A stretch of DNA of 64,000 bases from a virus (lineage: Duplodnaviria > Caudoviricetes). Below the pieces are notes generated by a model. It saw only the letters and a list, made by a program, of their open reading frames with translations, was not told the DNA's origin and did no database searches. Below are positions 5,331 through 47,781 of this stretch, piece by piece. The stretch spans positions 1 through 64,000 of the IMG/VR virus record IMGVR_UViG_2833005253_000001; one strand, written 5' to 3'. The position numbers and the translations under genes were made by a program. How positions within the stretch are numbered: position 1 is the first letter of the stretch; each line of letters opens with the position of its first letter.

Positions 5331-7394
5331 TTATTCCTTTCGGTAGCGATAAGTCTCAAACCCATTGGCGCTAAGCGGTAAATCCCAAGCCCAGTCCGAA
5401 TTAAAACTTAAGAGTTTGCTTAATCCCTCGGCTGAAAATTGGGGTGTATCGGGGGCTTCGCTGATAATTTCATCATGGACGGTTAGGACAATCTCATAAC
5501 CTGCCTTTTCAATAGGCGGCATGTTATATGCCAAAACATCCCGTGCAGTGCTCTGACATATATTTTCAATAATTTTGCCCCCGTAGGTTTTTAGCCTTTC
5601 CCATTTACGGCTATAGGGGTTAGTTCCCATGTAGGTGATTTGTCCATTCTCTGTTCGCGCAGAAGGGTAGCAAAGACTACGCCCTGAAGGTAAACAAATC
5701 CTGAGCCAGCCTTTATCGCGACGAACGCTAAGTTTACGGCACTTAAACGCTATCCCCGGTGACTGAATCGCTTGTTTTACGGCGTCTTCAATGTCGTACC
5801 AGAATGATACGGTTTGTGGATGGGCATTGCGCCACATACGCTTAAGGGCATCGCAGGTAACAAAGATTTTTTCGCTGAGGCCATACGTTTTATCTGTTTC
5901 AACGGATTTTTGATACCAGCGCATCGCCTCTCGTTTAACGCCAGGCAGTATATTAGGTAATGCGGCTTCCGCCAGTTCATCTAAATCCAGACCGTAGGCG
6001 AGGGCGAATGTCAGAAATGCCGCAACGCCTCCACCATAGCCTAAGCCGAGCTCCATCACCTTACCGATTTGCCGTTGTTCTTTGGTGACGTCCTCAGGTA
6101 AAAGATTAAACGCGCGCGCATAGGCGAGTTTATAGAGGTCATCACCTTTGCCGTTATCAAACTCGCTAAAAGCGTTGACTTTCCAGTTTTCCCCTGCCAG
6201 CCACGCCAGCATGCGGCCTTCGATATTCGACAAATCCGAGATAACCAGCTTTTTACCCGGTGGTGCAATAATACATCCTCTTAGCGCGGAACTGGTCAGT
6301 TGCATAATGTCATCACAAATCAGCTCGGCGCAACCGGCTTTTAAGGCTTCAATCCCGTTATCAATGGTGTTTGGGTCAAGCGTGGGTCTGGGGAGATTAT
6401 CTGGTTGAAAAACGCGCCCCGCCCAGCGTCCGGTGCGTGAGGCGCCACAAAATTGCTTAGTTCCTCTAAGTCGTCCATCTGCACTCACCGATTTTAACAG
6501 CGCTTTATATTTACTGGTGCTGGTTGTACAGGATTGCAGACGGACTGACAGCAGTTCGCGTAAATCCGGTGGGATATCAGGGTCATTAATGCGGCGCTGT
6601 AGCGTACTGGCCTGCATATCTGGTAACGTGATGCCAAATGCAGAAGCGATATGTTGTAGCAGAGCATCGCGTTGTGTTGCGTTTTGTACGGCATTATCCG
6701 TTAATTGCTGGGTAACAGTTGATAGCCGATTTTGCTCGTTTTCAACGGCGGTCAAGGCGCTTTTGGCCAACTCAACGTCCATACACATCCCACGGCGATT
6801 AATTTTTTGGTCTAGCTGCCATAGTTCGGTTTCATCGACATTCATATTCCAGTTGGGTAAATGTTGATAAATTTCCCGCATGGCTAAAATATCAGAGCCT
6901 GCGTAATCCTTAAAACGTTGCCATTCCTCTGCATGGGTTAACGCCGTAGCGCGTTGTATTTTGCTATTTTTAGGGCGGGGTTTGCACAATAAAGAGATAA
7001 GGGCTTTACCCTCTTTATCTTTGGCTTTATCGCTATTGACGTTGAAGATATCGCAAAGCAAGCCAAGCGCACCGGGTAGCCCATGTGCTAGTGCTTGCAC
7101 CAGCGTATCGTGAACACGGGATAAGGGTAAGTCGATATTTAACACTCGTTTTAAAATGACCGTATCGAACATACCGCCATTATGCCAGACGGTTAAGATT
7201 TCTGAGTCATCAAGATAGGCTTTTAAATCTGCGGGCATTGTTTTATCTTGCGTCACATCCCACACCTTGACAGGAGCATGATTGTACGCATACGCAAAAA
7301 GTAATATTTCTGCATTTTCAGCGTAGCGATGAGTGCCACAATTAATGGGGATATCGCTGTAGGTTTCTAAATCGCAAAATAGTAAATTTTGCAT
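5331..7394 (-). CDS. Family A DNA polymerase with 3'-5' exonuclease domain, 687 aa, no intein
   Basis: CDLETYS (ExoI), [15 protein letters not shown] (motif A), [14 protein letters not shown] (motif B), TVHDEI (motif C). Confidence 0.95.
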
Positions 7395-12035: not shown

Positions 12036-12734
12036 TTATTCTCTATAGTAAAGCGAATCTTTAGCAATACCCGCTACATAGATAATTTTTTCAATAGTTG
12101 ACGCGGCGAGACGTATCGGCGGATGGTTGGAGTTAATTGAAAGCAGATGAACAACATCATCTCTTTGATACAGAAATGTTTTTACCATAACCTGGCCGTG
12201 ATCGTCTTGAACGAGAACCTCATCACCCGGTTTATACTTATGGTTGGGCTCCATAACCACGAATTCTCCATGTTGAATTCTCGGCATCATGGATTCACCT
12301 TGACAACGAAGGGCAAAAGCATCTCGATCTTCAGTCGGCCAAATAATATAACCATAGTCATGTCCGGCTGAGGATTCTTTAGGATTCCAATATCCCCCTC
12401 CCCCCAATTGTGTTGTTCCCAGCACCGGCACCTTACAGAAGTTGAATGGAATAGCCTTGACTTCGACTCTTTCGTATGCTTTTGTCTTATTTTCTATAGA
12501 AATATGTGATGTGATTAAATCTTTATATAGCAATTCATTAGCTTCCACCCTAAAAAAATCCGCAATTTTTTGGATTATTTTTAATCGTGGACTTTTTACT
12601 TCCCCACTTAACATTCTATGTAGTGTAGGTTGTGGCATCCCAATTCGGCGTGATAGTTCAGCAACGCTTTTCACTCCTTTTTCAGCCATTAATTTCTTGA
12701 TATTCTTATTTAGTTTGGCCGTCATCATTCCCAT
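12036..12734 (-). CDS. cI: CI-like repressor (XRE HTH plus S24 autoprotease)
   Basis: SVAELSRRIGMPQPTLHRMLSG HTH; GESMMPRI (Ser) and MVKTF (Lys) S24 dyad. Confidence 0.92.
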   Translation of the reverse strand: MGMMTAKLNKNIKKLMAEKGVKSVAELSRRIGMPQPTLHRMLSGEVKSPRLKIIQKIADFFRVEANELLYKDLITSHISIENKTKAYERVEVKAIPFNFCKVPVLGTTQLGGGGYWNPKESSAGHDYGYIIWPTEDRDAFALRCQGESMMPRIQHGEFVVMEPNHKYKPGDEVLVQDDHGQVMVKTFLYQRDDVVHLLSINSNHPPIRLAASTIEKIIYVAGIAKDSLYYRE

Positions 12735-12764
12735 TATGTTACTCCCCTTTAATCCTATATAAAA

Positions 12765-12850
12765 TTCAAAATATACTTTTACGCATATTATATTTAAATT
12801 TAAATAAATCTTTCGCATTGCAAATATTTATGCGAATTGGTATTTTTGAA
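12765..12850. promoter_or_regulatory. oR region between divergent cI and cro
   Basis: AT-rich intergenic region with ACGCATA, TCGCATT and TATGCGAA motifs shared with the pL region. Confidence 0.55.
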
Positions 12851-13114
12851 CACTTAAAGGAAATGAACAATGGGAGAAAGACCGTGTATAAGAAATCACC
12901 TATAGAAATCGTCCAGGCATTATTAGCGCAGGGATTAACTCAATCAGAAATAGAAGCTAATACGGGTATTAAACAGCCTTCAATAAGCCGAATACTGACA
13001 GGAAAGAATAAAGATCCGCGTATATCTACCATGGTTGCCTTAGAAAAATTGTATTTAGAGCTAGCCACTAATTCTTTTAGTACATCAAGGCTAAATAAGT
13101 CAAAGGCCAAATAA
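12818..13114 (+). CDS. cro: Cro-like HTH regulator (true start probably downstream)
   Basis: GLTQSEIEANTGIKQPSISRILTG HTH; divergent from cI. Confidence 0.85.
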   Translation: MQIFMRIGIFEHLKEMNNGRKTVYKKSPIEIVQALLAQGLTQSEIEANTGIKQPSISRILTGKNKDPRISTMVALEKLYLELATNSFSTSRLNKSKAK

Positions 13115-13117
13115 CCT

Positions 13118-15391
13118 ATGCAAATAAGTTATTCCGTCGGGCGTAGTGTTAATGACAAACGCCCGAGGCCTGCTGTTGCTGACTCTTTTGCCGAGTATCA
13201 GCGGGCGATAAAAAAATTAACCAAACATATTAATATTAGTCCCACCGATCCAAAAGCCATTTTCGACAAAAAGAAAAAAGCCCTTAATTATATCTGGGGC
13301 GCAATGAAAAATGCCAAGAAAGGGCGTAATGCCCTTAATGCGGGTAAACGCAGCGTGCTATGGCTCGACATGGACGGTTGTACGTTAGCGGCGTGGGACA
13401 TGCTAACAGGTATTCTCCGTTTTTATCGATGTTTCGCTTATACCACTGCCAGCCATGAACACCCTGTTGCTCAGGGTGAACAACGCTGGCGCATTGGTTT
13501 TTTGTTGTCCCGTGATGTGACTGCATCAGAGTACAAACAGCTAGGGCCCCGCATTGAACAGGAGTTGATAGATTGTTTCGAATGGCTCAGTGATTTAGCA
13601 ATCAAGTGGGACAGCTCTGTCTATGAGCCGTCGCATATGATTTTTGCGCCTCATGAAGGGGCTAAGTACGAAAGTTTTGAAGGCACGGTGATCGATGTGG
13701 ATACGTTATTAGCCTCGGATAATACGCCTGTTATTGAGCATGCTGATGTCCCTAAGACTGCTGATGACGATTTAACCCGTTTAGTCGATTTGCAAAATAT
13801 CAATGACCAGACGTTTGAAGATTTACGTTCCGCATTATGGTATCCGAAAATATTAAACCAGGCCGAGAATTACCCTTCATGGGTCGATATGGGCAATCGC
13901 CTCGCCTGGTTCAAAGACACACGCTTTGAAGATGAAGCTAAAACGATGTGGCTTGATTGGTCTTCTGCAGCGGCTAAAGGTGATATCGAAGCCGCCGAAG
14001 CCAAATGGGCTGAACTACGTGCTGATAGAACAGGTTATCAGGCGATATTCAGTTTAGCGCAAAAAGCTGGGTGGGTAAATCCCGGTGCTGAGCGATTAAA
14101 AACTGCGGTAGCTACGGTAGATGAGTTCGACGATCTAACAGATCCTACCGAAAATTCAAAATGGCCTACGTTTAAACGCAATAGAACGTCAGGCCAAATA
14201 GAAGCCACCATTGACAACGCGGCTAAAGCGGTTATGTGCGCCGATTTTGTCGGTGTAGAAATTCGGTTTGATACTTTTCGTGATGAGATCATGTTTGCCC
14301 CTGTTGGCACTAAAGAGTGGCAAACCTTTACCGATGCCGATTATTCCCGATTGCGTATCACAATGGAAAAGCGAGGCTTTAGAGCGGTTGGACGTGAGTT
14401 AATTCGCGATGTGGTATTACTGGCAGCCGTTGAGAACCCCTTTGATTCCGCTATGGAATGGCTAAAAAGCCTCGAATGGGACGGCATACCGCGTATCGAA
14501 ACGTTTTACCATACCCATTTTGGTACTGAAGATACCGCTTATACCCGTGCGGTATCGCGCTATATGTGGACCGCCCTTGCGGGACGTGTGTTAAAGCCCG
14601 GTATCAAAGCAGATATGGTACCGATCTTGGTGGGTGCGCAAGGTTCTGGAAAATCGTCTGGCGTGGCGGCATTATCCCCTGATCCGACTTTTTTTACTGA
14701 AATTTCCTTTGCTGAAAAAGATGATGATCTGGCACGTAAGATGCGGGGCTGTCTGGTGGCAGAAATTAGCGAATTACGCGGACTTAATACCAAAGAACTG
14801 GAATCTATCAAAGCCTTTGTCACGCGGACACATGAAAAGTGGATCCCCAAGTTTAAAGAATTCGCCACCCAATTTCCCAGACGCTCATTGAGTATTGGTA
14901 CTACGAATGAAGATGAATTTTTAGGTGATAAAACCGGTAATCGGCGTTGGCTGCCCGTTGAAGTTGGAAAAATGGATGTAGAAGGTATCAAAAAGGATGT
15001 CATTCAACTTTGGGCAGAAGCGCGAGAACTATTTAACGAAACCGGTATTCAATTTCAAGAAGCAGAGCAATTGGCTAATCAGGTACATGAAAAGTATTTT
15101 ATCAAAGATGCGTGGCAGGAAATTATCGAGCGTTGGTTAGATGAACCGGATTTAATGACAGGACAAAAACCACGGGCACGGCAATTTTTACGATCTGCAG
15201 ATATTTTACGTGAAGCATTGAACCTTGAACCGAAAAATATATCGCGACGGGAACAAATGCGAATGGGCCATGTTTTGCAAAATTGCAACTTTAAACAAGT
15301 TCAACGTCGAATAAATGGAAAAGTTTGTCGAGTTTGGGAGTTATGTACCAACCTGTACCAACCTAAAATAGGTAGGTTGGTACACTATTAA
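13118..15391 (+). CDS. Primase-helicase (AEP-like N-terminus, PriCT-2, VirE/VapE SF3 helicase, C-terminal winged helix)
   Basis: WLDMD and YTTASH primase motifs; YPSWVDMG PriCT-2; GAQGSGKS Walker A; GTTNEDEFL..GNRRW. Confidence 0.9.
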   Translation: MQISYSVGRSVNDKRPRPAVADSFAEYQRAIKKLTKHINISPTDPKAIFDKKKKALNYIWGAMKNAKKGRNALNAGKRSVLWLDMDGCTLAAWDMLTGILRFYRCFAYTTASHEHPVAQGEQRWRIGFLLSRDVTASEYKQLGPRIEQELIDCFEWLSDLAIKWDSSVYEPSHMIFAPHEGAKYESFEGTVIDVDTLLASDNTPVIEHADVPKTADDDLTRLVDLQNINDQTFEDLRSALWYPKILNQAENYPSWVDMGNRLAWFKDTRFEDEAKTMWLDWSSAAAKGDIEAAEAKWAELRADRTGYQAIFSLAQKAGWVNPGAERLKTAVATVDEFDDLTDPTENSKWPTFKRNRTSGQIEATIDNAAKAVMCADFVGVEIRFDTFRDEIMFAPVGTKEWQTFTDADYSRLRITMEKRGFRAVGRELIRDVVLLAAVENPFDSAMEWLKSLEWDGIPRIETFYHTHFGTEDTAYTRAVSRYMWTALAGRVLKPGIKADMVPILVGAQGSGKSSGVAALSPDPTFFTEISFAEKDDDLARKMRGCLVAEISELRGLNTKELESIKAFVTRTHEKWIPKFKEFATQFPRRSLSIGTTNEDEFLGDKTGNRRWLPVEVGKMDVEGIKKDVIQLWAEARELFNETGIQFQEAEQLANQVHEKYFIKDAWQEIIERWLDEPDLMTGQKPRARQFLRSADILREALNLEPKNISRREQMRMGHVLQNCNFKQVQRRINGKVCRVWELCTNLYQPKIGRLVHY

Positions 15392-15626
15392 ATATATTAA
15401 TATCAATAAGTTAAATGTAGTGTACCAACCGTACCAACCTTTTTGTTATTAATAGCCTTAGGTAAGTCTATGGCATACAAAACATTACATAGAAGGTTAT
15501 AGATAGCTTATATATATATTTAATAGCGAAAAGGTTGGTACGGTTGGTACGGTTGTTACATTCTTTCAAAATCAATAACTTATGGTGTACCAACCTACCT
15601 ATTTTAGGTCGTTACAGGTCGTTACA
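15344..15626. other. Putative APSE replication origin: symmetric GTACCAACC iteron array
   Basis: Outer inverted repeat 15344-15385/15585-15626; inner inverted repeat 15422-15443/15529-15550; AT-rich centre; IHF consensus matches at 15401-15413 and 15570-15582. Confidence 0.75.
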
Positions 15627-15818
15627 CCTACGAACGGCAAAAAATTTCCCCGTTCACAACAGGAGCGAAAATAACAGGAGTAGAGACATTGAGAAAATAT
15701 GACTTCACTTGTTGTGCAGGTAATTCATATGCGGGTTGCTACTACCAGTGAACTGACAAATTCACCCCACAAAATATTTCGAATAAAGCAATTAGAGTAA
15801 GACTGAGGGTAAAATGCG

Positions 15819-16265
15819 ATGCGCAGAGATATTAAACAAGTGTTAGAGCGATGGGGAACCTGGGCCCGTGATAACAACACCGGGATAGACTGGTCGCCGA
15901 TAGTGGCAGGTTTTAAGGGATTGCTCCCATTACGCCCGTCTATGCGCCCTTCGTGCTCGGATGAGGATGGTCTTATTATCGATAATTGCGTTTCGCAATT
16001 GCAAAAAGTACGCCAGCCTGAAGAACTAAGTTTAATTATTGCGTATTACGTCAAGGGCTATTCGAAGCGGGCCATCGCTCGCCGACGTCGAGTGGATGAG
16101 GGGCTGATACGGGCAAAATTACTGATTGCCGAAGGATTTATTGACGGTTGCTTATCGCTGCTCGCCGTGCGATTAGACATGGACCCCGAGGTTAAAATGT
16201 ATTCGCCACAAAAAAGTGAAAAAAGGATTAGTGCGGTCCGCAAAAAGTTTGTTAATGTGCTATGA
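15819..16265 (+). CDS. Q: Antitermination protein Q
   Basis: MRRDIKQVLERWGTWAR, CSDEDGLIID, AEGFIDGCL (933W/82 Q-like). Confidence 0.92.
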   Translation: MRRDIKQVLERWGTWARDNNTGIDWSPIVAGFKGLLPLRPSMRPSCSDEDGLIIDNCVSQLQKVRQPEELSLIIAYYVKGYSKRAIARRRRVDEGLIRAKLLIAEGFIDGCLSLLAVRLDMDPEVKMYSPQKSEKRISAVRKKFVNVL

Positions 16266-17585: not shown

Positions 17586-17693
17586 CAAAAAAATACCATG
17601 ACCGGTAAACTCTTCTCATTTTTTACCCTCGCGTGATGTAACTGATTATCGGTCATCACCTTTCACTTATCATAGTTGTTACTCAAAATTATC

Positions 17694-20600
17694 ATGAACT
17701 CATCTTCACACTATACCAGCGCCGGTAATTTTATCAGCGCCGTTCAGGGCAGCGTCGACCCACGGACTGGATTGTTTAATCTGCAGCTTCCTTTGGCCAA
17801 TATTCATGCGAATGGGCTGACGGGCCCGTCGTTATCACTTGCCCTGATGTACTCGCCCTTATCAACGGCAAATCCGACGGGATTTGGTATTGGTTTTCGG
17901 TTGAACTTATCGCAATACGATAAAAATACCGGCCAACTCTTGCTGTCTACGGGTGAGGAGTACCGCGTTGACAGTAATGGCAGGGTAAAACAGCAAAAGC
18001 TGAAAACCTTTGTCTTTAAAAAAGCGGATAAAAATACCTATCAGGTCATTCACAAATCGGGTCTAATAGAGCGTTTATCGCTACGTAGCGGTGAAATTTA
18101 TGTTCCGACGCAGATTGCCTCCGCTGAAGGACGAACGTTACACCTCAGCTGGGACTCGCAGTTTTCTCCCGCCAGATTGACCCAAGTGACCGATGACGAT
18201 GGGCATATTCTTTGCGCAGTGGCCTACCCGGATAAAAACTCAGGCTTCACGCGTTTCACTCATTTGCCGGATAGTGTGGATCTCAGCTACAAAATAATCT
18301 TTGAGTTCATCAACGACAGGCTAAAAAGCGTTACCAGTGATGCGGTTGACCCCGCATTGGTCTGGTCTTTTGACTACGACGATGTTGGGTCCCAAGCCCG
18401 TTACCGGGCGATTACCGCCGTGCATTCGCCCACCGGCCTAACAGAAACAGTCAGTTACCATACCCAAACGGCTGACAGTATGGCCTTCCCGGAGATTGCC
18501 AACCTTCCCCCACTTCCCTGTGTCCATCGGCACACCGTTATTCCGGGCGGCGAACAGCCGCCCAGTGTGACCAACTGGACGTATACGCAAAAAAACTATT
18601 TAGGGAAAGATGCGGGCTTTAATCTGTGGCAGCCAGATAAAGACCAGATGTTGAACTTCTTTCTGCCTGATTATCAGTACGGCTCTACCGAGCAACGGTT
18701 GGATGCGGACGGCCATATTCTTTGTCAGGTAACCCGCCGCTACAACGCCTATCATCTGCTTGCGTCTGAAAAAACGGTGCGGGAAGGCAAAACTCATCTC
18801 AGTGAGACCGAGTATTACGCAAAAGCGGGGGTTAAATTTGATGACCAACCGACTCAGTATGCTTTGCCGAAGATGCAAAAAGAGACGTGGTCCGAACCTG
18901 GCGAAAAAGGAGGTACCGCTGCTCGCACCGTGGTGACACATTATGCATTTGATGAATTCGGCAATCCTGTGAGCCAGAAAGCCCCGGACGGCACTCTGAG
19001 TGAATACACCTATTACTCTGCCGAAGGAGAGGGCAGTAACTGTCCGGCAGACCCGTATGGCTTTACCCGGTATGTTAAAAGCCAATCGCTCACCCCGTTA
19101 CAAAAGAGCGGTCGTGAACCGAAAAATATGACCCGGTACACGTGGCAGCCGTTAGCGGCATTAGAGACAATAGCAGGTAACGGCTATGCCGTGGTGCAAA
19201 AAACGGTCGAGCAAACCACGGGAAACAAACGTAGCCTGACGGAGAATACCTATTATGCTGATAAGCATTCACGCCCGCTATATGGGCGCCTTCATCGCCA
19301 AACTATCACGTTAACACCCAATATCCTTCAAGAAAAAACGTTTACGTATAGCCAGCTATTCACTTACACCATGACGGAGCAGGCTGTCACTGAGCATCAC
19401 GCGTTCACGGGCCACGACGGGCTAACGGCAAAAAACACCACCGTTAGACACATCAGCACAGGCAATGTGTTGTCTGAAACCTCTGCCCAAGGAATAGAAA
19501 CCCGTTATGCTTACGATAAACTGGGACGGATAATCCGTCGGACACTCTGTCCTGATTCAGTGTATACCAACACCAGCACCTGGGAATATGGGATTCATCC
19601 GGCAGGGCCTTATTCAATCGAAACGGATGCACGGGGAAATAAACATAAAACAACTTTTGACGGTGCGGGCCGGGAACTCCATCAAGACACCTTTGATACC
19701 GAGACGGCGCGGTGGTATGCCACCTTTAGCTGTCAACATAATCAGTTAGGTGAGGTTAGCTCCGGTACCGTCAAGGATTGGTTAACCGGAAGCCAGACGG
19801 CTTACCCGTTAACCTCCGAGATTACCTATGGCGGATGGGGAGAAAAGAAAGCGGTCTCGTTCTCTGACGGTAGAAAATCGCTGCAACAGACAGACCCCAT
19901 TGCGCTCACGCAGACCGTTTACAGCCAGGGCGGTAACGGTAATACAGCGCTGACTAGCGCTAGCGTGACCACCACGTTAGATAAAATCAGTCAGCTTCCG
20001 CTTAATAAAATCGTCAAAGACCTCACCGGGGCAAAATATAGCGAATCCACTTATCAGTGGGATGGCCTAGGGCAGTTACTCGAAGAACAGGACGAGCTGG
20101 GTCAGATTACACAAAGAACCTATGATGAATATGGTCGGGTATTAACCCAAGCATTGCCTGACGGTACCGTCGTTGGCCGGACGTATGCCCCTCACCTTAC
20201 CGGCAATGCGGTGGCTTCCATTAGCGTCACCGGCCCCGATGCCAATGGTGCGTCCAAAACCTGGGAGCTCGGGACTCAAACATTCGATAGTCTAGGCAGG
20301 GTGACGGAACGCGTCAGCGGGGGTCGCACGACCGCCTATCGCTATCAGGGCGTCTCGCCCACGCCCTCAACGATTACCCTACCATCGGGTAAAACAGTGG
20401 AATACACCTACATTCCAGAATTAGGGAATGTCGTTAGCAGAATGAAGGCTGATGGTATTAGCCAAACATTCAACTATGACAAGCAAACCGGAAAATTACT
20501 GAACGCTCAGGAAGACAGCGCCAAGCTTGAAAACACCTGGTCAAAGGCCGGCCAGTTGAAGGAAGAGGGATTTTTACATAATGCACAGAACCGCAAGGCA

Positions 20601-22745
20601 AAGCATACGTATACGCTAAAAGGTGCTCCAGTTTCCTATACTGATATTACTGGGAAACAAACCCAGTACAGCATGGATGCACAGGGTCGCGTCACCCGCA
20701 TTACCGATGATAGCTTAACGGTTAACCTAACTTATGATGCATTGGGTCGATTAAATAGCCAGACAGTGCGTGATAAGGCTTCTGCGTCGTCTTTAACGAC
20801 TGCTTTCAACTATGACAGTTTTGGGCACGAAATCACCCGTACTGTGACCGACAACCGGGGTATGACGCTGAGGCTGTCACAAGCCTGGTTAAAAAACGGT
20901 CTATTGGCTTCCCGCACGACACAGAAAAATGGCCTCACCTGCCGTGAAGAGCAGTATGGTTATGACAACCGTAACCGACTGATTCGCTACACAGCCTCTG
21001 GAGACAGCCTACCGGTGGATGCGTATGGTCATCGCATGAGCGCGCAAACGTACCGCTATGATGCCCTCAATAACTTGACTTCCGTCAAGACCACTTTGGT
21101 TGACCGCAGCACCAACACGGCGACCTATAGTTATCAGAACGCGAGCGACCCGACCCAACTGACAACGCTAACTAATACGCACGATAACTATCCGAAGACC
21201 ATCAACTTAAACTATGACGCTGAAGGCCGGATGACCCGAGATGAAGCTGGTCGAACCCTGACCTATGACGTGATGGGACGTCTAACGGGCGTAAGTGATG
21301 AGACAATCCACCGCGCAGGGACCTACAGTTACGATGCCTTGAACCGTTTGATTACGCGCCACGCGGGCAATAATGACATCAGGGAGATTTATTATCGTGG
21401 GGCTGAATTGGTCAATGAAGTTAACACGTCAGCAAACAAAGCAACCCGGTTGGTTAAAACCGGGCATACCTGTTTGGGCGTGAGTGACGATAAGGGATTG
21501 ACGCTAACGGCGGGAGACAAAAACGACAGCTTGCTGTGGTCTGAAGAGGCGGGGACCTCTGCCGAAGGTGAGCTCCACGTCTGGTCACCTTACGGCAGTG
21601 GTAAAACGAGCGATAGGCTCCCGGGCTTTAACGGTGAACGGGTTGACCCTGTCAGTGGGACCTACCACCTCGGCAATGGTTACCGAGCCTACAATCCGGT
21701 CTTAATGCGTTTTAACTGTCCAGATAGCTTAAGTCCCTTTGGGGCTGGCGGCATTAATCCTTATGCTTATTGTGCTGGTGACCCTATCAATCATACGGAT
21801 CCGTCCGGCCATATCAGTGGGTGGGCGATTGCTGGGATTGTCATGGGCACCATAGGACTTGGCTTGGCGGTGTTCACGGCAGGGGCATCAATCGCGGCCG
21901 CAGGCGGGGTAATGGCCGCACTGAGTTCAGCATCAGCTTCATCATTAATTATCGGTGGGCTGGGTGTGGCCGCGGATATCACAGCGATAGCGAGTGGCGC
22001 GCTGGAAGATACGAATCCGGAGGCTTCATCAACATTGGGCTGGGTATCATTGGCCACCGGGTTGCCAGGGATGGTGGTAGGTATTACAGGTATTTGTCGA
22101 TGGGGGGCTAAAAAATTTCTTGGAAACATGAGAAATGTTGAACATGCTACTGTCCACACTGGTGTTCATCTTGACGATCCCTCTAATGTTATAGTGAAAA
22201 GTATGGCGAAATGCGGAATCGAAGACACCCAGTGGAGAGTGTATGCAGTTGGTGAGGTAAAATGGGATCGTAGTGGGGCGCTTAAGCTGGGTGCGGATAC
22301 AAAAATAAACTGTGGTAGTATCCGTGCTCCCCTTGAATTTATAGCAAAAAATGAATATGGTCCTAAACTCCCCATTTATATTATGACTGGTGGGCACGGT
22401 GCTAAAAGAGGTAATAACTACTCTATGGCCTCAAAATTTTGGAACAAGTTGAAAAGCCAAATGATTAAGCTTAATTTGGTCAGAGATCCAGAGTTGAAAG
22501 AATTAGCTTTTTTAAAGCAGGATACACGCGCGTACGTTAAGAATATAGGACGCGACAGTAACCCCCTCCTTGCAGGATTAGCTGGTAGAGTTCATCCACT
22601 AGATACTCATCTCTACTCCCCAAAAGCTATAGCAAAAATGCTTAGTCAAGATAAAGCACATGTTATTAACGGATTTTGTTTCGGCTCAAGTGACGAAATA
22701 TACCGTTCTGTCTTCGATGTGATAAAACCTATATCTTATTTGTGA
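17694..22745 (+). CDS. YD-repeat / Rhs toxin (APSE-3 Ydp type)
   Basis: Many YDxxGR repeats; Rhs core GFNGERVD..YHLGNGYRAYNP..PYAYCAGDPINHTDPSGH; hydrophobic segment followed by a divergent C-terminal domain. Confidence 0.95.
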   Translation: MNSSSHYTSAGNFISAVQGSVDPRTGLFNLQLPLANIHANGLTGPSLSLALMYSPLSTANPTGFGIGFRLNLSQYDKNTGQLLLSTGEEYRVDSNGRVKQQKLKTFVFKKADKNTYQVIHKSGLIERLSLRSGEIYVPTQIASAEGRTLHLSWDSQFSPARLTQVTDDDGHILCAVAYPDKNSGFTRFTHLPDSVDLSYKIIFEFINDRLKSVTSDAVDPALVWSFDYDDVGSQARYRAITAVHSPTGLTETVSYHTQTADSMAFPEIANLPPLPCVHRHTVIPGGEQPPSVTNWTYTQKNYLGKDAGFNLWQPDKDQMLNFFLPDYQYGSTEQRLDADGHILCQVTRRYNAYHLLASEKTVREGKTHLSETEYYAKAGVKFDDQPTQYALPKMQKETWSEPGEKGGTAARTVVTHYAFDEFGNPVSQKAPDGTLSEYTYYSAEGEGSNCPADPYGFTRYVKSQSLTPLQKSGREPKNMTRYTWQPLAALETIAGNGYAVVQKTVEQTTGNKRSLTENTYYADKHSRPLYGRLHRQTITLTPNILQEKTFTYSQLFTYTMTEQAVTEHHAFTGHDGLTAKNTTVRHISTGNVLSETSAQGIETRYAYDKLGRIIRRTLCPDSVYTNTSTWEYGIHPAGPYSIETDARGNKHKTTFDGAGRELHQDTFDTETARWYATFSCQHNQLGEVSSGTVKDWLTGSQTAYPLTSEITYGGWGEKKAVSFSDGRKSLQQTDPIALTQTVYSQGGNGNTALTSASVTTTLDKISQLPLNKIVKDLTGAKYSESTYQWDGLGQLLEEQDELGQITQRTYDEYGRVLTQALPDGTVVGRTYAPHLTGNAVASISVTGPDANGASKTWELGTQTFDSLGRVTERVSGGRTTAYRYQGVSPTPSTITLPSGKTVEYTYIPELGNVVSRMKADGISQTFNYDKQTGKLLNAQEDSAKLENTWSKAGQLKEEGFLHNAQNRKAKHTYTLKGAPVSYTDITGKQTQYSMDAQGRVTRITDDSLTVNLTYDALGRLNSQTVRDKASASSLTTAFNYDSFGHEITRTVTDNRGMTLRLSQAWLKNGLLASRTTQKNGLTCREEQYGYDNRNRLIRYTASGDSLPVDAYGHRMSAQTYRYDALNNLTSVKTTLVDRSTNTATYSYQNASDPTQLTTLTNTHDNYPKTINLNYDAEGRMTRDEAGRTLTYDVMGRLTGVSDETIHRAGTYSYDALNRLITRHAGNNDIREIYYRGAELVNEVNTSANKATRLVKTGHTCLGVSDDKGLTLTAGDKNDSLLWSEEAGTSAEGELHVWSPYGSGKTSDRLPGFNGERVDPVSGTYHLGNGYRAYNPVLMRFNCPDSLSPFGAGGINPYAYCAGDPINHTDPSGHISGWAIAGIVMGTIGLGLAVFTAGASIAAAGGVMAALSSASASSLIIGGLGVAADITAIASGALEDTNPEASSTLGWVSLATGLPGMVVGITGICRWGAKKFLGNMRNVEHATVHTGVHLDDPSNVIVKSMAKCGIEDTQWRVYAVGEVKWDRSGALKLGADTKINCGSIRAPLEFIAKNEYGPKLPIYIMTGGHGAKRGNNYSMASKFWNKLKSQMIKLNLVRDPELKELAFLKQDTRAYVKNIGRDSNPLLAGLAGRVHPLDTHLYSPKAIAKMLSQDKAHVINGFCFGSSDEIYRSVFDVIKPISYL

Positions 22746-38998: not shown

Positions 38999-40145
38999 CT
39001 AGGAATTATTTAAAAGTGCCAGATTAGTGACATCGTTTGCCAACGCCTCGTCAATTTTCTTGGCATGCTCAGTCAGGTGGCTGGGCGAAAGGTGTGCGTA
39101 ACGACGTACCATTTCGATAGATTCCCAGCCGCCCATTTCCTGCAAAACAGAGAGTGGAACACCTGATTGTATCAGCCAACTTGCCCAAGTATGTCTAAGA
39201 TCATGAAAACGAAAATTTTCTATCCCCGCTTTTTTTAACCCCGTTTTCCAAGCTCTATTATCATCAACCCTGAATTTACTCACAAGATCCTGCTTTTCTC
39301 CTTCACGGCCTTGGACTGTCTTCTTTCTCACAAAAACCCAACGAGAGTGTCTTCCAAGTTGCTCTCTCAGAACCCTACAAGCCGTCTCATTAAGGGCAAC
39401 TCCAATCGCTTTACCTGCCTTTGCTTGCTCCGGATGGATCCACGCCACTTTTCTTTCCATATCTATTTGCTGCCATTCTAAATGGATAATATTAGAACGA
39501 CGTAACCCCGTGGCTAACGCAAAGATCACTATCGGCCTGAAATTTTTGATTTACCACTGAAATCAGTCGATTCGCTTCTTCACGAGATAACCAGCGGACA
39601 CGCTTATCATTTGGTTTTCGTACTTTTAAATTCAGGGGCTTGGCTAACCATCCCCATTCATTGGCGGCAATACGCATGAGACCTCGCATAAAAGACAGAT
39701 ATTGACTGCGAGTAGCGGGTGACACCGCCTTATCATTAAAATCAGGTACTTGATAACCTGTTTTTAAGGAGGCACGCTTTATTGAGACCCACCGTTGCTG
39801 ATGTCTGCGATTTTTCATCTCTGAAATCACATGGGTGACTTCATCTTCTGTAATATTTGACAAGGACTTTTTTGAAAAATGCAATAAAAAAAATGCAATT
39901 TTGGTTTTATCATCATCCAATGATCGCTTATGTTGCTTTTCTTTAATCCATCTCACACAAGCTTCTTCAAATGTTTTTTGCGGAATTTCTCCGAGTTTAT
40001 TTTCTCGCCAAGCATTCGATTTTAGTTTATCGTGCAACTCCTGTGCTTCCTTCTTGTCCGCTGTTCCAAGAGATTGCCTAATTCTTTGGCCGTCTGACGT
40101 AACGAAATCACAGTGCCAGATCCCGTACCGCATTTTGATTGACAT
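38999..40145 (-). pseudogene. int: Tyrosine integrase paralogous to APSE int, frameshifted near 39540
   Basis: ORFs 39492-40145 and 38999-39529 join into one integrase; shares [34 protein letters not shown] with 1-1173. Confidence 0.92.
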
Positions 40146-40372: not shown

Positions 40373-40892
40373 TCTGTTTTCCTCTCAATTTGAGATTTAA
40401 ATCCGGAGCCAAACGCCCTGAGATGTCTTTTTTTAGTGCATCCAATAACGCTTTCTGATTGATGTGTTTGTTCTCTAGAGCCTCAAGGACAGTGATATCT
40501 ATAGAGTCATTCATGACGAGATGATGGATAAAAACAGGCCTGGTCTGGCCTTGGCGGTGAAGCCTTGCGTTAAATTGCTGATACAGTTCAAGCGACCAGT
40601 TCAAACCAAACCACACAATGATGTTGCCGCCAGATTGAAGATTGAGTCCATGCCCCGCACTGGCAGGATGCGCCAGGAGGAGAGGGATTTTTCCAGTATT
40701 CCAACGGTCAATCGTGTCAGCGGCATGGCCAATAAGTTCAGCCTTGGGGAATCTCACTTTGATTCGCGCTAAATCTGATTGGTAGTTGTAGGCAACCAGC
40801 ACAGGTTGGCCAGCCGCTTCTTGAATCATTTCTTCCAAGGCGTCCAGCTTGGTATCGTGAACTGTTTCAAAAGCGCCTTTATCGTCTGTATA
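40365..40892 (-). pseudogene. C-terminal remnant of SNF2-like helicase, truncated by IS630
   Basis: YTDDKGAFETVHDTKLDALEE..HPASAGHGLNLQ..NARLHRQGQ aligns with the APSE helicase C-terminus; the frame ends at the IS. Confidence 0.9.
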
Positions 40893-41795
40893 TAGCTGAA
40901 CGAAATAATTTTGGTGACGTCATGTAATGAGAAAATAAAGCATCGATACTGCAATTGACCGCTCTTCTTTTGCTTTTTGCTTCTGCCCATTTATGCTCAA
41001 CAGGATTGAGATCAGGCGAGTAAGGAGGCAGATATTCAATGATATGCCCCGCGTCATCGATCACTTTTTGAGTGTCCAAACGTTTGTGGAAGGTCGCATT
41101 ATCCATGACCACCACAGAGTCGGGTGGCAAACTCGGCAGAAGTATCTGAATGACCCAGGCGTGAAACACATCACTATTCACAGAACACATGAACAATCCC
41201 ACCGCCATCAGCGCTTTTCCCAGTAACGCCCCGATCACATTGGTTCGACCCTTTGCCTGCCCATTATGTTGACCGAAACAGCGTTGACCCCGTGGGGCAT
41301 AGCCATATCAACGCGGCATATCATGGGCAAAGCCGCTTTCATCCAGGTAAACGACTGATTTCCCCCGTTTTTCATAGTCAGCTATCTTGTTTTGGAAGGC
41401 TTGCCTCATATCTTCGTTCGCCTTGGGATGATTGAGGGTTTTTTTTATAGGTGACGCCCAAACGTTTCAGGGCGGACCAAATGGCTTTGGTACACACCCC
41501 GAAACGTTTAGCCCTTTCATGCTGGTAAGCATCCGGGTAACGCTCAACATCCTTGAGTAAAGCCGCTTTATCTATTTTACGCTGCCGGGGGAAGAGGGGT
41601 TCTTTTCAATTCGCTTCAGCCAGCGGGTAATCGAAGTGGCACCGATGTGAAAGCGTTTTGCCGTTTCTCTTATGCTCCACTTTTCTTTTTCTCTTACATT
41701 CAGCACGTGACGGCGAAAATCAACTGAATGACTCATCTCTCTCCCTTTTGAAATCATTAAATTTATTTCGTAACCGAAATTATTTCGTTAAGCTA
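40893..41795 (-). mobile_element. IS630-family element with inactivated transposase
   Basis: 19-bp TIRs TAGCT(G/T)AACGAAATAATTT, flanking TA, MDNATFH and YSPDLNPVE motifs; orfA ends early and orfB has an in-frame TGA. Confidence 0.92.
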
Positions 41796-41832
41796 TAACA
41801 TAAACAAGTAAAATCAATCTAATGGATGATAA

Positions 41833-42023
41833 AAGTAACAGGTAACACCTAATTTTATTAATTTATATAAAAATTTAACTAAAAAACTATATATATTTAT
41901 ATATAGTTTTTAAATGGGGGTGCTACCTACTTACTCCTGTTACCTTTTAATAAAAATATCATTATTATACATAGAGTTAGAAAAGATTCTGACAAGAGGG
42001 TGGTGCTACCCCTAGATGTGACC
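41833..42023. repeat. Ori-like module 1 (GGTAACA / TG(C/T)TACC iterons), left part lost to the IS
   Basis: GTAACAGGTAACACC 41835-41849; AT palindrome 41882-41911; GGTGCTACC at 41919 and 42002; TGTTACC 41938; TGTGACC 42017. Confidence 0.65.
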
Positions 42024-42024
42024 T

Positions 42025-42270
42025 TTGGAACTGATGGAGAATCCGCCTTATCCAGCGATGACTTTTCGTCAGATTGTTCGTGAAATGGGGAAGCTATCTG
42101 ACTTTGACACTCATATTGAAGAAGGTCAGTTGACGAAATTGCGACAGCATCACGCGCAACAAATGACTATCAAAATCGAAGGCAAAAAAGAAAGACCTTG
42201 GGTTCTTATCGAAGGAAAAAAGCTTGATAACAAAAAAATAAGGGAATCTGTAAAGCAATGCGGAATCTAA
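42025..42270 (+). pseudogene. Orphan fragment resembling a primase-helicase C-terminal winged helix
   Basis: Starts right after the last iteron of module 1 and ends at the first iteron of module 2; TIKIEGKKERPW resembles APSE primase RRINGKVCRVW. Confidence 0.5.
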
Positions 42271-42601
42271 AGGTGGCAGCTAAGTGGCACTTAAAAAGTA
42301 CAGGTGCCACCGATATTTTTTATATTATATCAAATGTATATCTAGAAAAGGTGGCAGGTGGCACTTATTTTTTACTAATGCGTAAGAAAAAAAATAATAA
42401 AAAATATTAAGTTGTATATATGTTTTTTATTAGTGCCACCTTACGAACTGTGCCACCCATCAAGCGGGAACACCGCATAGCATAAGGCTTTTAAGGCTGT
42501 CTCTGCTAAAACTGATGGTGCCACCTAATTGCCTGTTTAAAATGTATCCATTTGATATTAAATAAAAATATTGATTGTGTTTCTGCTTTTTAATTGCCAC
42601 C
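42270..42601. repeat. Ori-like module 2 (GTGGCA / TGCCAC iterons)
   Basis: Forward pair 42272-42290, reverse copy 42303, forward pair 42350-42364, AT-rich gap, reverse copies at 42433, 42450, 42517 and 42594. Confidence 0.75.
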
Positions 42602-42740
42602 TTATTTTGGTGTGGGCGACGAAAATAGCAAGTCTGATCTGAATGTGTTTATTGGTGGAGTCAAAAAATATCAGTTCAACAAAGATCAGGGAGTCTATCA
42701 AAACATGTGGATAAAAAAGGTTGCAACAGGTTGCAGGTAA
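42594..42740 (+). pseudogene. Second orphan 48-codon fragment running into module 3
   Basis: LPPYFGVGDENSKSDLNVFIGGVKKYQFNKDQGVYQNMWIKKVATGCR*; the last codons are made of the iterons, as in the APSE primase gene. Confidence 0.4.
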
Positions 42741-43030
42741 AAAGGCAAAGTGCAACCTCAAAAAATATATTAAATACAATAATTTACTTTAAAAAGGTTG
42801 CAGGTTGCACCTGTTCTTATTAAATGGTAAGGGAATAAAATAATTTAGTCACCTGCTGTTTTATACTATTACTAAGTTTTAAAAATGGTGCAACCCTCCA
42901 ACCGCTGCAACTTTTTTAGTTAAAGACTAATTAAAACAAAGCATTAACCAAAAATATTATTAAAAGCTTGGTGCAACCCTTAAACCTGACAGACCAAAAA
43001 ATACGCTGTGACGCATCGAATAACGCAACC
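42719..43030. repeat. Ori-like module 3 (GGTTGCA / TGCAACC iterons)
   Basis: Forward pair 42719-42735, reverse copy 42750, forward pair 42796-42811, AT-rich gap, reverse copies at 42887, 42905, 42970 and 43024. Confidence 0.75.
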
Positions 43031-43060
43031 TGAACCGGATGACGCAATGGAGAAAGCAGC

Positions 43061-43405
43061 ATGAATGTATTGCACGAAATCGCCGAAGTCATCGGCCCCG
43101 ATATGGCGGTGAAGTTAGGGCAATTAATGGGCGGAGCACGTTTATACGTGCCCGCCAAGGTGGCAGAGGACCACCCGTTCAGCTTGATTCTTGGGGCCAG
43201 CACCGCACAGAAGCTGTGTGACTACTATTGCGGGGATGTGATAGAAGTCCCCTGTAAAAAAGTCTTTCGACAGGTGAGGAATGACATCATCAGCCGCGAA
43301 TATCACAGCATGACACCTGAAAAAGAGAATCGGGCTAACATTCTCGCGTTAAAGTATGGCCTGACGTCTCGCCAGGTCCTGAATATCGCCAGAATGGCCG
43401 CTTAG
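43061..43405 (+). CDS. Mor/C-family (Mu-type) late transcription activator
   Basis: IAEVIGPDMAVKLGQLMGGARLYVP and C-terminal HTH LALKYGLTSRQVLNI. Confidence 0.82.
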   Translation: MNVLHEIAEVIGPDMAVKLGQLMGGARLYVPAKVAEDHPFSLILGASTAQKLCDYYCGDVIEVPCKKVFRQVRNDIISREYHSMTPEKENRANILALKYGLTSRQVLNIARMAA

Positions 43406-43595
43406 TCACCGTTGGTGTGCTGGCGGCCATCAAGGCTTCGACTCTTGATATCGTTTCATCAGACGCCAAAAACCGTCAAAATGCTTCTTAACCTGTTCAT
43501 TCCCCTCCCCATTAGGTGAAACATTTCATCTGAACTTTGACAACGTTTATCCCCAAGCTACCGCGTTATCAGAAGACCTGAAACGAGGTAACGTT

Positions 43596-45454: not shown

Positions 45455-47781
45455 AGCCCAGTTCTATGAGGCGATGTTACGTGATGACCTCTCCAGCTTC
45501 ATTCAACGCACCTTCGCCACAGTAGACCCCGGTGCTCAATATTTGCATATAGCTAAACGACATAAGAATAGTTACATAATATGTTCTGAAAACAAGGTAT
45601 TGATGTCGCATTGAAGTTCTCTTCTTTTTCTTTTAGCTTGAGCCCATGTGTGCTCAATAGGGTTGAACTCGGGCGAATAAGGAGGCAAATATTCAATAGA
45701 ATGACCGGCGTTGAGAATGGCGTGTTGAATATCTTTTCGCTTGTGGAAAGAAGCGTTATCCATCATCATCACGCACGGATGAGGAAGAGCGGGTAGGAGC
45801 AGCTGAGTGACCCAGGCATAAAAAACATCGCTGTTAATGGAGCAGTTAAAGAGGCCCACCGCGATGAGAGTGACCCCTAATAAGGCACCAATGACGTTAG
45901 TGCGGCCCTTAGCCTGCCAATCGTGAGTCCCAAAACAGCGTTGACCTCGTGTAGCGTATCCGTAGAGGCGGGGCATATCGTGAGCAAAGCCGCTCTCATC
46001 GAGATAAACCAGAGATTTACCCTGCTTTTGATACCCCGCGATTTTTTCCTGGAACCCCTGTCGTGCCTCTTCGTTTGCCTTGGGATGACGCAGAGTTTTT
46101 TTTATAGGTCAGACCCCATCTTTTCAATGCTTGCCAGATGGCTTTGGGGCACACCCCGAAACGGGCCGCCCGTTCCCGTTGATAGCTATCTGGATACTCT
46201 GCCACATCTTTGATAAACGCCTCTTTATCCATCTTGCCTCGACGCGGACCCGAGGGTTTCGGTTCTATTCGCTTGAGCCAACGCCTGAGAGTATCTGTAC
46301 CTACGTGAAAACGCTTCGCCGTTGCTCTGATGCTCAGTCCTTCTTTCTCTCGAATACTCAGGACTTTTTGACGAAAATCCACTGAATAACTCATAGTGAC
46401 CTCATGCTAATTAGTTCTTTATATTGTAACTAAAATTAAATCGCTTAGCTATAACTGGCACGTTGACCTGATAGCGGAATACCTGAAGGCCTGTACTGAC
46501 CGTGACATAAAGCGGCTGATTATCAATATACCGCCGCGCTATCTGAAATCCATCGCCGTGTCTGTCGCCTGGCCCGCATGGGTATTGGGTCATACGCCCA
46601 GTTCAAAGTTTTTAGCGTCCAGTTATTCAGATAAATTAGCCCTGAAACACAGTGTGGATTGTCGTTTAGTGGTTCAAAGCGCCTGGTACAGGCAAGTCTT
46701 CCCACAGATTCAACTGGTCAGGGACCAGAATGAAAAATCCAAGTTTGTCACCACGGCACGGGGGCACAGAATAGCCACCAGTACCGGCGGCACCGCGACG
46801 GGTGAAGGGGGGGATTTTCTGATTGTGGACGATCCGCACAATCCACGACAAGCGGAAAGCCCAACAGAACGAGAAAAAGCGCTGGAATGGTTTGACCAGA
46901 CTTTCTACAGCCGTTTAAACGACAAGAAAAACGGCGTCATTGTGGTCGTCATGCAGCGGCTTCATGAAAAAGACCTGTCTGGCCACTTACTCGCCCAAGG
47001 GGGCTGGGAACATGTCAAAATTCCGGCCATCGCAGACAGCAGGACGATGATTGACTTTGGCCGTATCCGTAAAACCCGAAGCCCGGGTGAACTTCTGCAT
47101 CCAGAACGGGAAGGGAAACCTGAAATCGCCAAGACCCAGACAGCATTAGGCACTTATGGCTTCTCGGGTCAATACCAGCAGGAACCGGTCCCGGCTGAAG
47201 GGGGCATGATTAAAAAGCCGTGGGTCCATCGTTATAAAACACCCCCGGCTCACCCTGTCCGAATTGTTCAATCATGGGATACCGCCTACAAATCGGCCCA
47301 ACTGAATGACCCGTCTGTGTGTACCACATGGGCAGAAACCAGACTGGCTTATTACTTGCTGGAGGTGTGGCGTGACCGGGTGGAATATCCGCGTTTAAAG
47401 TCGGCAGTAAAGAGCCTGGCTGAAAAATGGCACCCGAATGCGATTTTGATTGAGGACAAAGCCAGCGGTCAATCTTTGATTCAAGAACTCAAAGCAACGA
47501 CCCCACTCCCCATCATTGCCATCACCCCTGAACAGGACAAGCTGACCCGCATGTCTGCCCAGTCTGCGAGATTTGAAGCGGGCAAGGTCTTTATTCCTGA
47601 TTCGGCCCCCTGGTTACTGGATTTTGAGAAAGAGCTATTCACTTTCCCGCTGGCAGAGCATGACGACCAAATCGACAGCACCAGCCAATTCTTGGGCTGG
47701 GTGAGCAATCAGCAACAAAGTTACGCCTACAGCCCCGTCAAAGACGGCGGTCATCGCTTCAAACGTCAAGGAGCATGGTAG
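45438..47781 (+). pseudogene. terL: Terminase large subunit interrupted by IS630
   Basis: MHVPNK..GAQYLH [IS] NWHVDL..IPPRYLKS; LIVDDPH Walker B; QSWDTA, IEDKASG, HDDQID nuclease motifs. Confidence 0.92.
45550..46451 (-). mobile_element. IS630-family element, apparently intact (orfA/orfB joined by a frameshift at an A8 run)
   Basis: TIRs TAGCTAA(A/G)CGA; TA duplication at 45548-49 and 46452-53; orfA 46017-46394; orfB open from the A8 run (about 46100) through YLDESG, MDNASFH and YSPEFNPIE to 45572. Confidence 0.93.

Follow-up and report, generated by a model that had tools for sequence, protein, structure and literature searches.

What leaves several replication origins of apparently different specificity side by side in one prophage, with only scraps of gene between them? 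The question is raised by a 64,000-nucleotide stretch of DNA from a virus of the Caudoviricetes (Duplodnaviria; positions 1 to 64,000 of IMG/VR record IMGVR_UViG_2833005253_000001), hereafter the window, which forms the first part of a 102-kb provirus record. Three origin-like modules stand there in tandem, at 41834-42985, each built on its own 7-base repeated word or iteron: GGTAACA/GGTAGCA in module 1, GGTGGCA in module 2 and GGTTGCA in module 3. An earlier note, made from the letters alone, had read them as a stack of cassettes, each pairing the origin-binding tip of an initiator protein with its cognate origin. The region is best explained as the origin zone of a Mor-type temperate prophage, now decayed, adjoining an APSE-type prophage, and comparison supports the identification of the modules as origins of the kind found behind primase-helicase genes. 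We consider it probable that the stack represents fossils of serial replacement and unequal recombination of tip-plus-origin units, orphaned by a deletion linked to an element of the IS630 family of insertion sequences (IS). This reading rests on the unequal lengths of the gene leftovers, at least three illegitimate joins, an inverted origin arm and an inverted origin core, a module order that differs in a relative, and a tip start shared between arrays.

Modules and gene leftovers at the locus

The words are tightly clustered. GGTGGCA occurs 13 times in the window, counting both strands, and 8 of these copies lie in the 330 bases at 42272-42601 (P = 6e-16, the chance of such grouping given the word totals in the window); for GGTTGCA the figures are 7 of 11 copies in 260 bases (42719-42978; P = 6e-15), and for a fourth word, GTACCAACC, all 8 copies fall within 283 bases (15344-15626) after the primase gene of the APSE prophage (P = 1.5e-19). 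Ten sequences were aligned, namely modules 2 and 3, the corresponding APSE region and seven origins taken from further loci. They show a common layout: after the stop codon come two forward copies about 12 bases apart and a single reverse copy; beyond an AT spacer stand two adjacent forward copies, a T-rich motif and the AT-rich core; two reverse copies 17 bases apart follow and, some 60 bases further on, a terminal reverse pair. Clustering and alignment together bear out the earlier observation that the three modules share one layout with different words, and that the region 3' of the APSE primase repeats it with a fourth. GGTGGCA is present in module 2 as three forward and five reverse copies, and GGTTGCA in module 3 as four forward and three reverse copies. 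In most of the ten aligned origins, that of APSE included, the adjacent forward pair is succeeded by a motif that is not an iteron, a T-run and then ACTAATGCGTAAG-like bases (window 42364-42385; alignment columns ~118-142), which may be a host-factor or priming site.

Module 1 retains the adjacent forward pair (AGTAACA-GGTAACA), a palindromic AT-rich core and both reverse pairs, the one with copies 17 bases apart and the terminal one, its reverse iterons reading TGCTACC, TGTTACC, TGCTACC and TGTGACC. The proposal that its left part was lost to the IS is plausible, because the IS630 element ends at ~41797, one spacer length left of the adjacent forward pair. Reads and contigs from other strains diverge at 41771 and 41797, and a 2.2-Mb genome that carries the same stack (G204) has the same junction between IS630 and module 1.

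Two short open reading frames (ORFs), at 42025-42270 and 42594-42740, are present between the modules as first described. The first, which we call orphan tip A (Table 1), contains two helices, a beta-hairpin (KIEGKKERPW) and a final helix, and is without the catalytic Prim-Pol and helicase domains. Its frame is shut upstream by a TGA at 42019-42021, opens only at 42022, and closes one base before module 2. In a large protein collection it shows 71, 66 and 63% identity to the C-termini of three proteins of 743-744 residues (E 3e-29 to 9e-21), all carrying PF09250, PF08707 and PF19263 (Prim-Pol, PriCT_2 and DUF5906) and one annotated as from Candidatus Hamiltonella defensa. A tblastn search of phage records matched four Escherichia coli myophages at the end of a 753-residue gene that follows cro, and the pairwise alignment with its protein spans residues 666-748 (E 6e-16). 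On this homology tip A is a gene remnant, the true C-terminal tip of a primase-helicase; no full-length relative or cognate full-length initiator was found in the 102-kb record or in G204. Among loci with available DNA, the tip closest to tip A (71%) is that of L006, where it is followed by a GGTGGCA origin and then by a Mor homolog. Because L006 has the same word and then a Mor homolog, module 2 with tip A appears to be the normal 3' end of such a replication module. The primase-helicase C-termini that tip A matches, together with GGTGGCA in the downstream DNA of its closest relatives, support its identification as an orphan initiator C-terminus cognate to the module that follows it.

A predicted structure was obtained for a 119-residue tip (predicted local distance difference test, pLDDT, 73.8), with elements in the order helix, helix, strand, helix, helix, hairpin, helix. 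Its best structural matches are nearly all winged-helix DNA-binding domains with modest scores: E-values of 0.2 or worse in Foldseek, with none at E <=0.001, and a best Z of 6.9 in VIA (root-mean-square deviation 3.0, 84 residues aligned), where 35 chains reached Z >=5 and none Z >=8. Because these scores are modest, we grade the modelled fold only as consistent with a winged helix. The model of the 81-residue tip is poor (pLDDT 64; Foldseek E 0.14 or worse, VIA Z <=3.6), and a profile search of PDB sequences with the tip gave a best E of 0.066, to unrelated chains.

The second ORF had been credited with a similar hairpin-then-tryptophan ending, YQFNKDQGVYQNMW, and this did not hold. A phmmer search of 1.84 billion representatives returned the ORF itself and repetitive giants but no real relative, and tblastn against phages gave nothing better than E = 5. 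Homology in this zone lies elsewhere. A helicase-core piece matches residues 470-498 of P0005 at 21 of 29 positions; P0005 is a 541-residue Prim-Pol/PriCT_2/AAA_25 protein (Pfam AAA_25 match at residues 331-495) that reads into module 3 in yet another frame, and for this reason it appears to represent this junction as it stands in a different strain, where the gene body has stayed attached. Its 629-residue relative P0006 continues as a helicase. The +1 frame aligns with the C-terminal 21 residues of P0003, 14 of them identical (E 6e-6, ending at 744/744), and has a stop four bases ahead of the first GGTTGCA, as in intact genes. Helix-turn-helix and hairpin are absent from this tail and, because the +1-frame match is limited to the end of P0003, module 3 appears to keep only the tail of its gene. 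We reject the ORF as a hairpin-bearing origin-binding tip and regard YQFNKDQGVYQNMW as a reading-frame accident.

The picture of stacked cassettes stands in part: tip A with module 2, and the family-wide behavior described below, conform to it, whereas the second fragment is an AAA_25 piece joined to a tip tail. Because that fragment is not a complete tip, the stack is better described as a scarred mosaic than as a tidy array of complete cassettes. It contains at least three illegitimate joins (42019-42027, 42601-42606 and ~42640-42655), its leftovers measure 81, ~15 and ~21 codons, and an inverted partial copy of a module 2-like left arm, missed earlier, sits between module 2 and the AAA_25 piece.

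Tip and origin in related phages

All six full-length loci examined with their downstream DNA show the common layout right after the stop codon, with the words GGTGGCA, GGAGACG, GGTACCAC, GGTGACAG (two loci) and GGTGACGG. When 124 related loci were scanned for repeats under strict criteria, exactly one module was found in 62 and none in 58, many of the latter being truncated or sharing no more than an N-terminal relationship. Four loci gave calls of more than one module; three of these are GC-rich simple-sequence calls, leaving only the locus L291. The genes preceding the layout belong to two helicase families, VapE-like and DUF5906.

Hairpin type (the residues between a conserved G and W) was compared with word at 28 loci, 22 of them enterobacterial-type. 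Within these 22 the same hairpin always accompanies the same word, for six hairpin types and five words: FVYRI with GGTGACGG (7 loci), (M/L)TVRM and DTLRF both with GGTGGCAG (4 and 2 loci), MGYRF with GGTAACAG (3 loci), IAQRF with GGTGACAG (3 loci) and STQ/FTN/CTN-RF with GGTGTCAG (3 loci). Tips of the form K-I-x-G-K-K-x-R-P-W (window, L291, L006 and G204) each stand upstream of GGTGGCA, and an orphan tip of L291 with GEVRRSW precedes G(G/A)(T/G)GACGC words, which may be compared with the GEMRRAW tip of L008 before GGAGACGC. Mosaic proteins provide what we consider stronger evidence than the hairpin table for exchange of tip and origin. In 30-residue windows, L301 is 93-100% identical to L300, L305 and L304 up to about residue 690, falls to 67-90% in the last two windows, and has a different word; compared with L313 it is only 43-83% identical in the N-terminal half, reaches 97% in the last two windows (~60 residues), and has the identical word. 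This mosaicism suggests that tip and origin move as one unit and, with the covariation of hairpin and word, upholds the idea of a cassette across the family. Replication genes of the symbiont phages appear highly mosaic in general: one cluster at 90% identity contains members with different tips (P0002 and P0010), and P0005 shares its first ~59 residues with P0002 before continuing as an AAA_25 helicase.

In L291, a provirus record estimated to be 74% complete, the corresponding position, with primase on one side and mor on the other, is occupied by a stack of another composition. Here an intact 743-residue primase is followed by a GGTGGCA origin (tip and origin together 88.7% identical to tip A and module 2), the first 11 codons of the same AAA_25 piece, and a 53-residue tip piece identical in type to the end of P0002. 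A 240-base insert (6258-6498) separates this piece from a GGTAGCA origin whose core is inverted relative to that of module 1 (window 41831-41950 against L291 6495-6614, 87% identity), the module tail being collinear from 41938. There follow an 85-residue tip opening at the same codon as tip A, an origin in which GGTGACG and GGAGACG words are mixed, the first 7 codons of a further tip, and then the same mor promoter (99% identical) and mor. The insert has TTGCTTAATAA direct repeats on both flanks and a 12-base inverted repeat (GGACTTACGCAA) inside, and may be a miniature mobile element. The leftovers of L291 thus measure 53, 85 and 7 codons, in a module order different from that of the window. 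A shared tip start (a stop, then P-L-E-L-M-E-N-P-P-Y-P) occurs in tip A, G204 and the 85-residue tip of L291, which represent few independent arrays, and the 7-codon remnant after the last L291 module belongs to it as well.

G204 carries the stack of the window, with modules 1 and 3 identical; an orphan tip was present in only this one of 401 sampled genomes of its family. The middle of its tip A differs from the window (42090-42240, compared with L409 of G204) at 42 of 245 sites and matches the intact L291 tip except at six, both versions keeping K-I-x-G-K-K-x-R-P-W, which looks like a gene-conversion tract from the tip of another phage. The adjacent forward GGTGGCA pair has become eight tandem copies (L409 1829-1884), compared with two in the window and L291. 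One left-arm reverse copy in G204 is mutated to TGCCCCC, as it is in L369. Contigs from two RNA libraries, which may contain DNA, carry the G204-type tip. One such contig, X18, is without 83 bases of module 3 (42885-42969). The joint falls between paired 12-base direct copies around TGCAACC, a pattern suggesting that iterons mediated the deletion. Iteron expansion and this deletion look more like drift than maintenance. A different arrangement is seen at L290, which has a single origin and half a tip fused into the next gene: an 84-codon ORF (6033-6287) opens in the manner of the gene found after the origin in relatives and continues as a 5' tip half (LNDPPALAMT...), another recombination scar at the tip.

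Interrogation of 50,697 phage records with 41790-43420 (blastn) gave no match. Exact 14-base scans of viral contigs for adjacent iteron pairs returned mostly chance matches and, after a local word-count filter, a few real origins of other families, such as that of L129 (GGTTGCA after an unrelated helicase end). Searches of viral contigs with the mor-promoter pattern and with P0007 each retrieved the L291 contig only, a metagenome scan with the tip alignment yielded three loci and no new stack, and P0006 was not found in two genomes of the genus of G204.

Setting of the stack

The features of the locus and of the APSE origin used for comparison are collected in Table 1.

Table 1. Coordinates of the stack, its neighbors and the APSE replication region in the window
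Feature	Position	Strand	Description
cI	12036-12818	-	APSE
cro	12818-13114		APSE
VapE-like primase-helicase gene	13118-15391		APSE
APSE origin (predicted; comparison)	15344-15630	+	GTACCAACC; overlaps last codons of VapE-like primase-helicase gene
Q antiterminator	15819-16265		APSE
IS630-family element	40879-41797	-	Broken transposase; Pfam DDE_3 and HTH_Tnp_IS630; right end adjoins module 1
Module 1	41834-42023	+	GGTAACA/GGTAGCA; begins at adjacent forward pair, left arm absent
Orphan tip A	42025-42270	+	Last 81 codons of a Prim-Pol/PriCT_2/DUF5906 primase-helicase
Module 2	42272-42535	+	Complete predicted origin; GGTGGCA
Inverted partial copy of module 2-like left arm	42545-42601	-	blastn 42284-42340 vs 42600-42545, 75% over 57 bases; L291 has one too
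AAA_25 (RepA-like) helicase-core piece	42606-42649	+	~15 codons around DENS motif after Walker B; from a Prim-Pol/PriCT_2/AAA_25 gene
Tip-tail remnant, DUF5906-type	42643-42714	+	~21 codons, frame of 42643; TAA 42712-42714
Module 3	42719-42985	+	Complete predicted origin; GGTTGCA
mor promoter region	42996-43060	+	Three TGACGCA-like repeats; 99% identity to L291 7339-7443
Mor-family late activator	43061-43405	+	Pfam Mor, phrog_836; right border of origin zone

The virion genes of the APSE-type prophage reach ~38555, and its toxin cassette (17676-22745) encodes a 1689-residue Rhs-repeat protein with a C-terminal Tox-HDC domain. To its right lie the remains of the second, Mor-type temperate prophage, beginning on the minus strand with a split integrase, an excisionase and a C-terminal piece of an SNF2-type helicase. 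The integrase (38999-40145) is probably a frameshifted pseudogene, since it is split into two overlapping ORFs of 176 and 217 residues. On the far side of the stack, Mor is 53% identical (E 5e-44) to the gene after the single origin of L006, and is followed by an endolysin, a holin, a small terminase, a second IS630-family copy, a truncated large terminase and a Mu-type portal; the second IS630 (45572-46394) stands between the small terminase and a large terminase that is without its N-terminal part. TGACGCA-like repeats at 43005-43047, just upstream of mor, have similar counterparts before mor in L006 and are likely binding sites for a regulator of the late activator gene. As part of module 3 they were rejected, being a separate set. 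In its available text, an account of symbiont genomes describes a Mu-like prophage island that was invariably located 3' of every integrated APSE (PMC5841374), and the arrangement in the window matches that account.

Proposed formation of the stack and comparison with known systems

Homology, layout, tip-word covariation and mosaic joins are observed, whereas origin activity, the residues that read the word, and the order of events are our inferences. The typical gene of the family encodes Prim-Pol, PriCT_2 and a superfamily 3 (SF3) DUF5906 helicase and ends in a putative DNA-binding tip of ~80 residues, the beta-hairpin of which would read the middle of the word GGTNNCA; a predicted origin of ~270 bases begins within a few bases of the stop codon, with iterons in both orientations around an AT-rich core. 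Related phages would swap tip and origin as a single unit. An incoming replication module could be joined in illegitimately, or could enter through unequal crossing-over where the 5' part of the tip is conserved (ELMENPPYPAMTF), and leave the 3' end of the old gene and its origin downstream; repeated events would pile up three origins that differ in specificity and are separated by gene leftovers. The IS630-linked deletion would then have taken the primase body, and the three origins, now presumptive orphans, would be bound or fire only if an incoming relative supplied the matching initiator.

Several observations weigh against this history. Between module 2 and its L291 counterpart, iteron positions changed at 0 of 62 sites, compared with 18 of 273 others (Fisher p = 0.02), and module 3 has seven perfect iteron copies; intact orphan iterons could mean selection instead of recent origin. 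The stack of L291 coexists with an intact primase, so that stacking is not confined to wrecks. Because stacks were seen in no more than two or three lineages, the proposed succession of events is a reconstruction. Covariation of tip and word is confounded by linkage, the two being ~100 bases apart and co-inherited, and many of the 22 loci are near-identical prophages. The fold evidence lies below the level that the search tool itself calls distinctive, and the origin-binding domains of P4 alpha and of the Rep protein of SaPIs (Staphylococcus aureus pathogenicity islands) are absent from both fold-search lists for the 119-residue model, which is not evidence that the folds differ. Intact iterons, and a stack beside an intact primase, leave room for a selected role as decoy, in hitch-hiking or as spare cassettes, whereas strain-to-strain expansion and deletion and the absence of a cognate initiator speak against maintenance in this lineage.

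In its broadest form, such a role would have heterospecific origins and spare tip segments maintained either to act in trans, sequestering or exploiting the initiators of superinfecting relatives for exclusion or hitch-hiking, or to act in cis, as ready tip-plus-origin units for a switch of specificity at the conserved 5' part of the tip. We regard this as unlikely; if true, the stack would be a DNA-site counterpart of orphan toxin-immunity arrays. A narrower version, which we hold a shade less probable, is that the origins are a selected multi-key set replicated in trans by several related initiators, so that the stack hitch-hikes on relatives as satellites do. It could account for the completeness and perfect iterons of modules 2 and 3, for the match of orphan specificities to tips of full-length proteins annotated from the same symbiont group, and for retention of the stack in the window and G204, with another form in L291. 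Because the terminase and integrase of the remnant are broken, however, its amplification would not yield transfer; strains differ by iteron expansion and a deletion within module 3, stacks are rare (one further locus among the 124 scanned), and no cognate initiator was found in G204.

Less probable again is a decoy, in which an incoming relative would have its initiator titrated or handcuffed by the orphan iterons, with lower replication and exclusion of superinfection as the outcome, or tip A, expressed alone, would be a competitive binder. Any intact iteron set should bind its cognate initiator, iteron loci act as incompatibility determinants in plasmids, iteron positions are better conserved than their surroundings, and the increase from two to eight tandem GGTGGCA copies in G204 would raise titration capacity. 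One chromosomal copy is nonetheless a weak sink, and deletion within module 3 in one strain counts against maintenance. Tip A has no clear ribosome-binding site, a promoter scan of the region gave 5 signals where shuffled sequences predict 5.4, and RNA reads over the stack (45 in X24, 0 in X22) are too few to judge transcription. Were such piles to act on incoming phages, they would constitute a new route to replication-level exclusion or parasitism among insect-symbiont prophages. That the modules are not origins at all, but operator arrays for a transcription factor or IS or attachment-site remnants, is very improbable: short inverted and direct repeats in AT-rich DNA ahead of a late activator could be regulatory, but at dozens of loci this layout comes directly after the stop codon of a primase-helicase gene, the genes belonging to two helicase families, its words covary with the end of those genes, the mor-proximal repeats are a separate set and, as grounds for rejecting the remnant version, the IS ends left of the stack.

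The proposed formation of the stack by serial replacement invites comparison with Rhs and contact-dependent inhibition (CDI) orphan arrays, in which an incoming unit pushes a variable C-terminal tip, together with its cognate partner, downstream through recombination at a conserved junction. The analogy fits how such stacks could form, and is drawn for that alone: here the tip has a site in DNA, and not a gene, as its cognate partner, and of the window's three leftovers two are too short for a working tip. In lambdoid O/ori and plasmid iteron loci the DNA-binding part of the initiator covaries with the iterons, and extra iteron sets can titrate initiators, but the lambda ori lies inside the O gene, whose binding part is N-terminal, and plasmid loci such as P1 incA carry iterons of their own specificity, not those of others. 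P4 alpha is a primase-helicase with a C-terminal origin-binding domain and iterons, and P4 ori and crr have the same type of repeat, both used by one protein, whereas neighboring modules here have different words and only protein fragments remain. No paper on tandem origins of different specificity with initiator remnants was found in the literature collection searched, and the words 'primase' and 'iteron' are absent from the APSE comparative-genomics paper.

The closest parallels in design are the origins of SaPIs and other phage-inducible chromosomal islands (PICIs). As the available text of two reports describes them (10.64898/2026.10.17.759575; PMC6092414), these span ~300 bases directly 3' of rep, may overlap its last codons, and have an AT-rich region flanked by 5-7-base iterons in two opposed sets; the initiators, Rep or Pri-Rep, are self-loading SF3 helicases whose C-terminal winged helix gives island-specific recognition, its beta-hairpin wing contacting bases in the major groove. 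The second report also mentions the alpha protein and its cognate ori site (PMC6092414). The family shares with these islands an origin 3' of an SF3 initiator gene, opposed iterons and an AT-rich core and, by coincidence, the SaPI5 iteron, TGCAACC, is the word of module 3. The elements differ in being prophages with full virion modules and in the Prim-Pol/PriCT_2 N-terminus of the initiator, and in descriptions of the islands each element has a single origin rather than a stack of heterospecific ones with gene leftovers. An origin organization there called unique to PICIs (PMC6092414) is found behind prophage primase-helicases at 13118-15630 of the window and 4006-6530 of L001. In ORF904 of pRN1 the domains follow one another in the same order (prim-pol, SF3 helicase, winged helix), and a region essential in cis lies downstream of the gene (PMC2777425, PMC4234260); pRN1 is an archaeal plasmid with a single origin, and the available text of these papers describes no series of iteron words or exchange of tips. 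Taken with these systems, the modules have every mark of origins of known design, and the new part would be the heterospecific stack with its gene leftovers, which points to tip plus origin as the unit of exchange and to old units piling up. The satellite design would also serve ordinary prophages, with two different helicase families, and near-isogenic initiators differing only in the terminal hairpin, together with the middle bases of GGTNNCA, offer a natural series for how a wing may read DNA.

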